Program-made: the position numbers and the translations under genes
Assembly: GCA_051883395.1 (NCBI GenBank)
Contig: JBJETQ010000022.1
Span: forward strand, 2,305 to 66,304
DNA from: Christensenellales bacterium
GTDB lineage: Bacteria > Bacillota > Clostridia > Christensenellales > UBA3700
Direction: 5' to 3'
DNA length: 64,000 bases
The notes under the pieces: model-generated
The model's database searches: none
Seen by the model: only the letters and a program-made list of their open reading frames with translations
What the model was told of the DNA's origin: nothing
Shown here: piece after piece, positions 26,985 through 28,301 of the stretch
Layout of the letters: the number at the start of each line of letters is the position of its first letter
How positions within the stretch are numbered: the stretch's first letter is position 1

Positions 26985-27917
26985 ATGGCAAAAGAATTAC
27001 CAAAAATCATCATTGATTATGAAGGACCGAACGAGCAATTGGTTTGGCAATCGCAAATTCAGCAATGTATTGGCGAGACGGAAGTAATCGTTCCGTTTTC
27101 ACACGAAGTAATCTTTATTAAAGATGGAGAGATGCTAGATACCATGATGCCTGGCAAACATACTCTCAACGTTCCTACGGTTACAAAAGGCTTTTTGGGC
27201 ATTGGTAAAAAGATTGTAAGCGAACCTTTTAAATGCCAGGTGTTTTTTGTCAATAAAACAGTAACGTTGGTTGTACCTTGGGGAACGCCTAATCAAATGA
27301 AATTGATGGATCCATTCCTTGAATATCCTGTAAGTGTTGGTGCGCATGGGTCGTTTGACATAACCATCAGCAATTCTAGAAAATTTGTTTCTAAGGTTGT
27401 GGGAAATACGGCGGGAGTGACTACGGAAGGTTTGCAGAGATTTTTTGCAGACAAGATGATTATGCGTGTCAAGGACGTAATTGCCAACGCAATGGTTACC
27501 AGCAAAATCAACTTCTACGAGCTTAATACTCGTCTTCTTACCATTTGTGACGTTATACTTGACAGTGTAAGAAAGATGTTTGATGACTATGGTGTGGAGA
27601 TAACAGCATTTACACTCAACGAAGTAAAGATACCGGACAGCGATTTGAGAGAATTGGAATCTATTTTGAAACAAAAGAAATTGCTTGGGCTCAAAGAAAC
27701 CAGCTTTTCTAAAGAAAGAGCGGCAAAGCAGGAAACTACCAAAATGATTGTTGATGCTTCGGTAAGACTTGCAGAAGCAGCTATTGATGCAGAAGGCAAA
27801 AAGCAACAAGTGATAATCAATAATAATGCACAGGCAGGCAAGTATTGTCCAAAATGTGGCACCAAAGTTGCTCCTGACGCAATGTTCTGCAACAACTGTG
27901 GCAATAGATTGCAATAA
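26985..27917 (+). CDS. operon gene 9: SPFH/Band-7 protein of the YdjI type (COG4260, virion-core-protein-like) with a C-terminal zinc ribbon
   Basis: VIFIKDGEMLDTMMPGKHTLNVP ... VFFVNKT ... WGTPNQMKLMDP matches my recollection of the B. subtilis YdjI pattern. The C-terminus is CPKCGTKVAPDAMFCNNCG. Confidence 0.75.
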   Translation: MAKELPKIIIDYEGPNEQLVWQSQIQQCIGETEVIVPFSHEVIFIKDGEMLDTMMPGKHTLNVPTVTKGFLGIGKKIVSEPFKCQVFFVNKTVTLVVPWGTPNQMKLMDPFLEYPVSVGAHGSFDITISNSRKFVSKVVGNTAGVTTEGLQRFFADKMIMRVKDVIANAMVTSKINFYELNTRLLTICDVILDSVRKMFDDYGVEITAFTLNEVKIPDSDLRELESILKQKKLLGLKETSFSKERAAKQETTKMIVDASVRLAEAAIDAEGKKQQVIINNNAQAGKYCPKCGTKVAPDAMFCNNCGNRLQ

Positions 27918-27947
27918 TATTGCCAAATATTAAAAGGAGAAAAGTGT

Positions 27948-28301
27948 ATGTGTTTTAAAAAATTTACAGAAAAGAGAAAATTGAAAAACTATAACAAGCA
28001 TGATGAAGAAATAAAAGAAAGCAATAGCGTTCTTCGTTCCAATTTTGCCAAGGTAAAAACTTTGTGCGGAATGACTCAATCAGATACAGTAAAGAGCAAA
28101 CTCAATGAAGTTGCCGATTTGTTAGAATATGCATCTCCGTCGACAAAAGGTGAGGTCGTAAAGGAAGATAACAAGATTTCTGACAGGCTTGATGACGTAA
28201 AAATTCTTATTGTTGGAGAGAAGGCAGAAGATAAAATTGTTGAAAAAATCAATGAAATCAGGATTATGGTTATTGAGAGAAATAATTTGACAGGTGTGTA
28301 A
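27948..28301 (+). CDS. operon gene 10: small charged helical protein, unknown family
   Basis: 117 aa with an AAGGAG RBS. Its stop lies 1 nt before the gene 11 start. Confidence 0.5.
   Translation: MCFKKFTEKRKLKNYNKHDEEIKESNSVLRSNFAKVKTLCGMTQSDTVKSKLNEVADLLEYASPSTKGEVVKEDNKISDRLDDVKILIVGEKAEDKIVEKINEIRIMVIERNNLTGV

Follow-up and report, generated by a model that had tools for sequence, protein, structure and literature searches.

A YdjI-type SPFH protein encoded beside ESCRT-III-like genes and a MIT-like AAA ATPase in a conserved bacterial module

How the ESCRT-III polymers of prokaryotes are targeted to membranes is a question that bears on a 64,000-nucleotide stretch of DNA from a Christensenellales bacterium (GenBank assembly GCA_051883395.1, contig JBJETQ010000022.1, positions 2,305 to 66,304), hereafter called the window. 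Its interval 26985-28301 consists of two plus-strand open reading frames, gene 9, encoding an SPFH protein, and gene 10, encoding a small orphan protein. They are followed by two ESCRT-III-like genes (genes 11 and 12) and by the gene for an AAA ATPase with a MIT-like N-terminal domain. A preliminary description, made from the sequence of the window, proposed that gene 9 corresponds to YdjI of Bacillus subtilis and provides the membrane platform that recruits the ESCRT-III polymers. Does the SPFH protein belong to the same system as its neighbours, and could it act as their recruiter? We address the first point by surveying related loci, and the second by comparing the predicted components with known SPFH and ESCRT-III systems.

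Conservation of the SPFH gene and its neighbours

The core genes are located in the window as follows.

25616-26962, + strand: gene 8, cytosolic protein with zinc ribbon, TPR-like, TIR-like and WXG/ESAT-6-like parts, no transmembrane (TM) segment; ESAT6_2 E=7e-4 at residues 367-441
26985-27917, + strand: gene 9, soluble YdjI-type SPFH protein, 310 residues; Band_7_1 at residues 33-224, helical linker, C-terminal zinc ribbon
27843-27911, + strand: zinc ribbon of gene 9, CPKCG-x11-CNNCG, residues 287-309; Pfam Zn_Ribbon_1 1.7e-8
27948-28301, + strand: gene 10, small three-helix protein of an orphan family, 117 residues; from an alignment of homologues, no family match
28303-28908, + strand: gene 11, divergent ESCRT-III-like protein, 201 residues; AlphaFold2 (AF2) model and Foldseek, start from homologues
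28923-29516, + strand: gene 12, Snf7-type ESCRT-III protein, 197 residues; Pfam Snf7, AF2 model and Foldseek
29526-31079, + strand: Vps4-like ATPase, 517 residues; MIT-like three-helix N-domain (1-75), linker, AAA, lid, C-terminal helix

Related loci were retrieved by a gene-12 profile scan of metagenomes, which yielded 60 loci, and were then scanned with hidden Markov models (HMMs) from the window and three relatives. Upstream components were counted in the 36 loci with at least 2.6 kb upstream of gene 12, the ATPase and a BrxL-like gene in the 29 loci with at least 6 kb downstream, and gene-8-like and EssC-like genes in the 26 loci with both flanks. The SPFH protein and gene 10 are each present in 34 of the 36 loci, gene 11 is present in all 36, and the ATPase in all 29. 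Gene-8-like proteins occur in 18/26 loci, the BrxL-like gene in 4/29 and the EssC-like gene in 1/26. The SPFH gene is always followed by genes 10, 11 and 12 in this order, and independently retrieved loci have the same gene order. The median spacing is 11 bp between genes 9 and 10 and 3.5 bp between genes 11 and 12, and this tight spacing suggests co-translation. Moreover, the synteny holds down to about 33-40% identity in gene 12 and about 20% in the SPFH protein.

The module is composed of one to three zinc-ribbon/TPR/TIR proteins, the SPFH protein, gene 10, genes 11 and 12, and the MIT-like AAA ATPase. Eight of the 26 loci have no detectable TIR-like protein, yet keep the series from the SPFH gene to the ATPase gene, and the accessory layers (EssC-like/WXG-like/leucine-rich repeat, BrxL-like, trypsin-like) differ by locus. 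The SPFH-Snf7 adjacency pointed out for the window, in which gene 9 lies directly upstream of the ESCRT-III-like genes with gene 10 between, thus recurs in other genomes. Adjacency in 34 of 36 loci, together with the median 11-bp gap between genes 9 and 10, makes a functional partnership very likely. Gene 9 is a near-obligate subunit of a conserved module, presumably for membrane remodelling, of bacteria from the gut and the environment. At 90% identity the gene-12 family falls into 117 clusters, and at 50% identity the gene-11 family forms 74 clusters among 1.84 billion representatives; the module is a rare, specialised system.

The assignment of gene 9 to the YdjI-type SPFH proteins (COG4260) is borne out by its match to Pfam Band_7_1 (PF13421; E=2.2e-25), which reaches 90 bits against a cut-off of 24, far above its 19 bits on the generic Band_7 family. 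As the YdjI reference we used the orthologue from Bacillus tequilensis (L010:422-1393), found by scanning a genome collection for the ydjI primer printed by Scholz et al. 2021 (PMC8581546). This orthologue scores 144.5 bits on Band_7_1 (E=4.6e-42) versus 37.2 bits on Band_7, and has a C-terminal CPNCG...CPNCG ribbon. The two proteins have the same architecture and align end to end, though at 17% identity (pairwise E=2e-5), and the alignment includes the C-terminal CPKCG...CNNCG ribbon that had been described for gene 9 (GKYCPKCGTKVAPDAMFCNNCGNRLQ). Nearly all SPFH proteins of the module end in one or two zinc ribbons. No hydrophobic segment was detected in gene 9. Sequence comparison thus places gene 9 in the family of YdjI and with its architecture, yet in a distant lineage of that family. 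Band_7_1 relatives at 31% identity or less lie in unrelated gene contexts, which argues that the SPFH protein of the module is a dedicated lineage and component.

A database record with a protein identical to gene 9 is named 'SPFH domain-containing protein [Christensenellales bacterium]' and belongs to a Christensenellales metagenome-assembled genome. At L055:7334-9028 (also in L056), the SPFH protein of the module is fused to a C-terminal trypsin-like peptidase (Trypsin_2 3.4e-25). In L073 and L074, a separate trypsin-like gene (L073:12065-12814) is located between the MIT-AAA and BrxL-like genes.

ESCRT-III-like proteins, ATPase and membrane contact

Gene 12 of the window matches Pfam Snf7 with E=2.2e-4 and 21.4 bits, under the cut-off of 27.3. 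In its family, Snf7 is matched by 19 of 41 members (best 2.8e-8), and PspA_IM30 is not matched. The AF2 model contains four long helices (8-50, 53-111, 114-153 and 160-195), as expected of ESCRT-III, and its top Foldseek matches are CdvB, CHMP2A/3, CdvB2, CHMP1B and Loki CHMP4-7, with weak E-values (0.04-0.9). The family is characterised by an MGxF-K N-terminus and a C-terminal amphipathic helix, IDxxLxELxKxL, with the spacing of a type 1 MIT-interacting motif (MIM1-like). Gene 11, which probably starts at the ATG at 28303 as judged from homologues, carries an MWPF/MGLF N-terminal motif and a conserved C-terminal IYG...LLxMFE motif. Its AF2 model (predicted local distance difference test score, pLDDT, 76) contains a confidently predicted hairpin (14-51/55-105). 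Vipp1, Asgard ESCRT-IIIB, Shrub, CHMP1B and CHMP2A/3 make up most of the best Foldseek PDB matches of the model (E 0.15-0.5), and the CHMP4B hairpin appears at rank 47 (E 1.4, TM-score 0.87). In hhalign, the gene-11 and gene-12 families are collinear (E=3e-4, 39% probability). Family profiles of genes 10, 11 and 12 gave no ESCRT-III or other convincing match among PDB sequences, so that the ESCRT-III signal of genes 11 and 12 comes from predicted folds and Pfam only.

The ATPase follows gene 12. Nine of the 14 PDB matches of its N-terminal profile are MIT domains (Sulfolobus Vps4/CdvC, human VPS4B and chitin synthase; E 0.016-9), and Pfam MIT itself is matched by just two of 24 family members. 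Pfam recognises a single classical AAA domain (2.4e-40) and Vps4_C (21.7 bits against a cut-off of 21.3), the latter scoring 43 bits (L059) and 24 bits in relatives. Among NCBIfam models, CDC48 reaches 233 bits versus 214 bits for CdvC, both far under their cut-offs. In addition, the protein has an extra, uncharacterised C-terminal domain of about 110 residues (approximately 400-517). Since the core is nearest to the D2 domain of Cdc48/p97, and no Vps4 beta-domain insert was seen between the lid and the C-terminal helix, we describe the ATPase as Vps4-like in architecture; 'Vps4' is a label for this architecture, orthology to Vps4 not being proven. The ATPases of the family come in three formats, of about 370-385 residues (MIT-like plus AAA), about 480-520 residues with the extra C-terminal domain (as in the window), and about 680-706 residues with tandem AAA domains; examples of these formats lie at 29526-31079 and at L054:10564-12603, L063:10551-12671 and L059:10280-12373.

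TM segments were found in none of the distinct homologues of the SPFH protein (0/39), gene 11 (0/48), gene 12 (0/59) or the ATPase (0/53). In the gene-10 family, 23 of 40 distinct homologues carry a strong TM helix at the N-terminus, with basic residues behind it. This makes gene 10 a likelier membrane tether than the SPFH protein, and tethering is its probable role. Homologues without the TM helix begin with MC[FT]KK or MxLF-KK, and gene 10 of the window has a polybasic 'MCFKKF' N-terminus in place of the helix; these N-termini resemble, in sequence, the membrane-insertion motifs at the N-terminus of ESCRT-III proteins. A cysteine at position 2 recurs in the versions without a TM helix (window, L001, L054, L055, L058 and L063). 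Examples of both N-terminus types include 27948-28301, L027:8584-8985, L034:8830-9267 and L013:2508-2909, among others. In the three-helix cytosolic part, P64 is invariant and D74, D83 and R111 are near-invariant.

Gene 10 has no match in Pfam, PDB or profile comparisons, and a word-indexed homologue search returned only the query itself; its homologues were collected from the retrieved loci. The candidate explanation that gene 10 is a truncated ESCRT-III protein or a MIT domain was rejected, as hhalign against the gene-11, gene-12 and MIT-like profiles gave no relationship. Its three helices and conserved residues recall PspAA ('trihelical, absolutely conserved R and D'), a likeness by published description only. 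Two loci without TIR-like proteins have a stand-alone protein of 117-119 residues between genes 10 and 11 (L027:8985-9344 and L047:9028-9381), in which 'DAYWGLML' compares with 'DAAWGLMLANK' in the TPR-like region of gene 8; the match is weak (E=0.006 over 38 residues).

From its N- to its C-terminus, gene 8 has a CxxC...CxxC ribbon, TPR-like helices, a TIR-like domain of divergent sequence and a domain resembling WXG/ESAT-6 proteins. The ribbon cysteines C9, C12, C26 and C29 are invariant across 45 relatives, and the part common to these relatives is limited to residues 1 to about 290 (zinc ribbon, TPR and TIR). TIR_2 is above the Pfam threshold in nine of ten tested relatives; gene 8 of the window has no TIR_2 match at E<0.01, and its TIR-like domain is degenerate. 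E205 and R239 are invariant in the TIR-like family, neither being assignable to a catalytic position. TM segments were detected in 31 of 50 gene-8-like proteins, located after the module of about 290 residues and followed by variable C-termini. By sequence, their topology is receptor-like, with a predicted cytoplasmic TIR domain and a variable outer part. Gene 10 and, in many loci, the TIR-like proteins would therefore be the membrane-embedded parts of the module, as predicted from their TM segments. The C-termini are highly variable and range from 200 to more than 2600 residues (L004:5992-8226, L021:11994-15944, L030:11773-15603, L059:7080-9647 and others).

Proposed recruitment by the SPFH protein and alternative explanations

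The proposal that the SPFH protein recruits the ESCRT-III-like polymer draws on three precedents, namely YdjI-PspA in B. subtilis, archaeal genes for SPFH, coiled coil and zinc ribbon proteins, and ESCRT-III/Vps4 biochemistry. YdjI binds PspA and is required for the membrane foci of PspA, and depends in turn on YdjG/H for its own membrane localisation (Scholz et al. 2021, PMC8581546). The SPFH protein of the module has no anchor of its own and would thus need recruitment to the membrane, as YdjI does. Modelled on the role of YdjG/H for YdjI, the gene-10 protein would anchor an SPFH oligomer on the cytoplasmic side of the membrane, either via its TM helix or, in the window, via its polybasic/hydrophobic N-terminus. 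The SPFH assembly would mark or corral a membrane patch and nucleate copolymers of genes 11 and 12, and the MWPF/MGLF N-termini of the ESCRT-III-like proteins would insert into the bilayer. The MIT-like domain of the ATPase would bind the C-terminal MIM-like helix of gene 12 and remodel or recycle the polymer. The TIR-like proteins, with their variable and often membrane-spanning C-termini, could be either sensors that trigger assembly or cargo. The likely output would be the budding of vesicles, or the repair or shedding of membrane that is damaged or under attack. By analogy with these precedents, recruitment by the SPFH protein is plausible, though we place it slightly below an even chance.

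Several observations weigh against recruitment. The direction, with the SPFH protein recruiting ESCRT-III, leans on analogy with one organism. Moreover, a 2026 preprint ascribes the phenotypes of SamI (YdjI) in B. subtilis to control of SamG/H signalling and finds them largely independent of PspA, which weakens the platform reading even for this organism. The SPFH proteins of the module share 15-22% identity with YdjI. L025 carries the ESCRT-III/ATPase genes without an SPFH protein and without gene 10, and L063 lacks the SPFH protein and keeps gene 10 (missed by the HMM and found by eye), so that the SPFH protein is dispensable in some lineages. None of the 43 members of the gene-11 family matches Pfam Snf7 or PspA, and all Foldseek E-values are above 0.01. 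The best PDB matches of the ATPase core and lid are the D2 domains of p97/Cdc48/VAT, followed by katanin, and the core is no less similar to Cdc48 D2 than to Vps4.

The classic partners of SPFH proteins are FtsH for HflK/C, the m-AAA protease for prohibitin and NfeD for stomatin, and pairing with AAA proteases or other proteases is accordingly a classical SPFH arrangement. Following the logic of HflK/C-FtsH, the SPFH protein could scaffold or gate the MIT-AAA and/or the BrxL-like ATPase or a protease, and not the ESCRT-III polymer; it could likewise limit the access of substrates to a membrane unfoldase or protease. The SPFH-trypsin fusion in L055/L056 and the trypsin-like gene in L073/L074 fit this arrangement, as does the match of the ATPase to the AAA module of the FtsH family (2e-58). 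However, the SPFH gene is always located beside gene 10 and the ESCRT-III-like genes and apart from the ATPase gene, a protease is present in few loci and the BrxL-like gene in 4 of 29, and the ATPase has no protease domain and bears an N-domain of the ESCRT-III-binding (MIT-like) type. We therefore regard scaffolding of an ATPase or protease as unlikely, and the control of substrate access as similarly improbable. The SPFH cage is cited in PMC10936438.

A different role would be that of a sensor or regulator, in which the SPFH protein and gene 10 sense membrane stress and control the TIR-like proteins (signalling or NAD+ consumption) within an immune or abortive-infection system, the ESCRT-III-like proteins and the ATPase being a parallel effector or repair arm and not a client of the SPFH protein. 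This is in line with the TIR_2-type proteins, with variable and often membrane-spanning C-termini, in 18 of the 26 complete loci, with the zinc ribbons on both the SPFH and the TIR-like proteins, and with the PspA-independent role in signalling control that the SamGHI preprint gives to YdjI. Conflict systems typically have variable partners of receptor-like type and, now and then, a BrxL-like ATPase, and the operon is a low-GC island. Nevertheless, beyond BrxL and a generic AAA similarity no component matches known defence families, the phage, viral and plasmid records yielded no copy, and the eight loci without a detectable TIR-like protein keep the core genes. In addition, the TIR-like domain of gene 8 in the window is degenerate, and catalysis by the TIR domains of the family is putative. 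Both the sensing role and a separate ESCRT-III arm thus appear doubtful. Finally, gene 9 might be a generic COG4260 housekeeping protein that happens to lie next to ESCRT-III-like genes, given that Band_7_1 proteins are common and that its distant relatives have other gene neighbours. Such a coincidence, which we consider highly improbable, is effectively excluded by the gene order and close spacing kept in 34 of 36 loci from many metagenomes, at SPFH identities down to about 20%.

The preferred reading remains recruitment of the ESCRT-III-like polymer by the SPFH protein. With the SPFH protein and its putative tether genetically welded to the ESCRT-III-like pair and the ATPase, SPFH-to-ESCRT-III recruitment becomes directly testable in a compact module, with only five small proteins, soluble or single-pass, and away from the stress regulation of PspA. 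We tentatively put forward a wider interpretation, in which genes 9 and 10 would form the SPFH/tether front end of a Snf7-type ESCRT-III machine, the first one native to bacteria, which would have its own MIT-AAA (Vps4-like) recycler and be wired to receptor-like TIR proteins. Such a machine might be widespread in Clostridia-like and other uncultured bacteria, with tethered SPFH rings nucleating the polymers, and the polymers might bud off or reseal membrane upon envelope attack, or export cargo. If this speculative interpretation were true, the SPFH/ESCRT-III partnership would be universal and ancient, common to bacteria (PspA and Snf7 types), archaea and eukaryotes, and ATP-driven ESCRT remodelling would extend beyond archaea and eukaryotes. 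The link between remodelling and TIR-domain proteins points to a possible new class of envelope defence or vesicle export in gut anaerobes.

Accessory genes and comparison with known systems

The core genes of the window belong to a longer operon, with the following additional features.

18496-18524, + strand: promoter-like site TTGACA-17-GATAAT, 11/12 consensus matches, preceding the first gene of the operon
18573-22100, + strand: FtsK/SpoIIIE-type ATPase, EssC-like, 1175 residues, accessory; Pfam FtsK_SpoIIIE 3.5e-28, NCBIfam type VII secretion system (T7SS) EssC 3e-39
22091-23684, + strand: five small helical proteins (90, 88, 86, 180 and 105 residues), at least one WXG100-like
23720-25564, + strand: membrane protein with three TM segments (176-308) and BspA-type leucine-rich repeats; Pfam LRR_5 1.8e-24
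31081-32583, + strand: short BrxL-like AAA+ ATPase, accessory; TIGR02688 5e-127 (above cut-off), PADLOC BrxL 7e-194
32580-34820, + strand: N-terminally anchored protein with Listeria-Bacteroides repeats, last gene of the operon; Pfam Flg_new 3e-13 and Flg_new_2, TM/signal anchor 10-40

The co-directional plus-strand run extends over 18573-34820, about 16 kb, with gaps of at most 51 bp or overlaps, and genes 9 and 10 each have a GGAGG/GGAG ribosome-binding site upstream. The promoter-like site is defined by its consensus match alone, and no convincing plus-strand terminator was found within 18573-34820. The operon is a low-GC island, with 33-41% GC versus 44-49% in its flanks (window 18000-36000). 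Neither an integrase nor a tRNA was seen at the operon edges, and a tmRNA at 9554-9896 is the sole RNA gene found. Plasmid, phage and IMG/VR collections gave no relatives of gene 12 and thus lend no support to a mobile or viral origin. Downstream of the operon, 35232-36407 encodes a 391-residue fusion with a flavin-reductase-like N-terminus, rubredoxin-like CxxC pairs and a rubrerythrin-like domain, resembling a type known from strict anaerobes; both the domains and the resemblance were judged by eye only.

The EssC-like ATPase has neither TM segments nor FHA domains, its N-terminus is a long coiled coil, and its NCBIfam T7SS EssC score is far under the family cut-off. Its gene is found only in the closest relatives (L001-3, L011 and L071), and in one of the 26 broader loci with both flanks. 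A canonical T7SS was rejected, because this ATPase lacks TM and FHA parts, scores far under the cut-offs and is missing from most related loci. Among the small proteins, that at 22372-22638 has a weak WXG100 match (E=2.9e-4). The small protein encoded directly downstream of the EssC-like gene (22091-22363) shows homology with the C-terminal 99 residues or so of gene 8 (30% identity, E=7e-5), and both contain an SWDDS motif; a weak ESAT-6 match was also obtained. This homology suggests that the TIR-like protein may carry a WXG-type tag read by the TM-less FtsK/EssC-like ATPase.

The BrxL-like ATPase is composed of BrxL_N and the ATPase, without a Lon protease domain, and its gene follows the MIT-AAA gene after a 1-bp gap. 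Besides the four of 29 broader loci, the gene is present in L001-6, L009, L071 and L073. According to a 2025 paper (PMC12065111), many BrxL proteins terminate in a MIT_C/PLD-like domain as in MITD1, which binds ESCRT-III, and this MITD1-type domain may be a second link between BrxL and ESCRT. A PADLOC scan gave only BrxL and a generic AAA similarity (IetA/TRIP13); the operon is thus not a catalogued defence system. The product of the last gene (32580-34820) is probably a surface protein.

With type VII secretion and BREX, the operon shares the FtsK/SpoIIIE ATPase, the WXG-like small proteins and the BrxL-like ATPase flanking the core in the window, but no other T7SS or BREX genes are present and these parts are accessory. 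Like the HflK/C-FtsH cages, the module is expected to have an SPFH ring or cage organising an AAA+ machine on the membrane, and some loci fuse or adjoin a trypsin-like protease. In contrast, HflK/C are anchored by TM segments at their N-termini and are members of Band_7 (PF01145), not Band_7_1, and the module has no FtsH-type protease domain.

The archaeal Cdv system (CdvA-CdvB-CdvC), of ESCRT-III-Vps4 type, likewise combines Snf7-type subunits that carry a C-terminal MIM-like helix with an ATPase that has a MIT-like N-domain and a C-terminal helix, and the best structural matches of gene 12 are CdvB and CdvB2. Both systems would use a dedicated non-ESCRT membrane recruiter, CdvA in the one and, as proposed, gene 10/SPFH in the other. 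Here, however, the host is bacterial and presumably divides by FtsZ, the genes lie in an accessory low-GC island and not in a core division operon, there is no CdvA and no winged-helix domain, and the ATPase has no beta-domain insert and a core nearest to Cdc48 D2. Archaeal 'Meth_adaptin' ESCRT loci carry SPFH, coiled coil and zinc ribbon proteins, for which YdjI-PspA was cited as a parallel and an ancient functional link between ESCRT-III and SPFH was already proposed (Makarova et al. 2024, PMC10936438). Compared by description, these loci also have a zinc-ribbon SPFH protein beside Vps4/ESCRT-III genes and zinc ribbons on other locus proteins, whereas adaptin-appendage, GOLD and ProX there stand against TIR-like proteins, gene 10 and BrxL here.

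The comparison with pspA-ydjGHI (samGHI) bears on the preliminary description most directly. In both systems a Band_7_1 SPFH protein with a C-terminal CxxC...CxxC ribbon and no membrane anchor is co-operonic with an ESCRT-III-superfamily protein, and membrane contact is expected from separate small membrane proteins. The two differ in that the SPFH proteins share only 15-17% identity, in that the partner here is Snf7-type, with two paralogues, and there PspA_IM30, in that the MIT-like AAA ATPase has no counterpart in the PspA system, and in that the SPFH gene is upstream of the ESCRT-III genes here and last in the operon there. YdjG combines an NTF2-like domain with two zinc ribbons and a TM segment, and YdjH is a membrane TPM-domain protein (PMC11237479); both were compared by this published architecture, as L010 begins within ydjH, about 420 bp upstream of ydjI. 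Gene 8 is indeed a zinc-ribbon protein but not YdjG-like, having one ribbon, TPR/TIR/WXG-like parts and no TM segment. Gene 10 is a small helical protein, as described, without the TPM or any other Pfam match that a YdjH counterpart would have. In place of YdjG/YdjH, the module has the orphan putative tether gene 10 and the zinc-ribbon/TPR/TIR-like proteins. Hence the pairing of SPFH and ESCRT-III mirrors B. subtilis, but the logic of the whole operon does not. The notion that Snf7/Vps4 take the place of PspA is in line with the Snf7-type gene 12 and holds for Vps4 as an architectural label only, the core being nearest to Cdc48 D2.

In the searchable literature, whose coverage is incomplete, no description of this bacterial module was found. 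Ravi et al. 2024 describe Vps4-like ATPases in bacteria with snf7 displaced, as well as tandem AAA ATPases that accompany bacterial PspA or TM-Snf7 within different gene neighbourhoods. Two reviews call such ATPases or systems absent from bacteria, and according to a review a Vps4-like ATPase 'appears absent in bacteria' (PMC7619361). Earlier publications have already linked SPFH proteins with ESCRT-III in B. subtilis and in archaeal ESCRT loci; the new element is the bacterial Snf7-type module, apparently undescribed so far.

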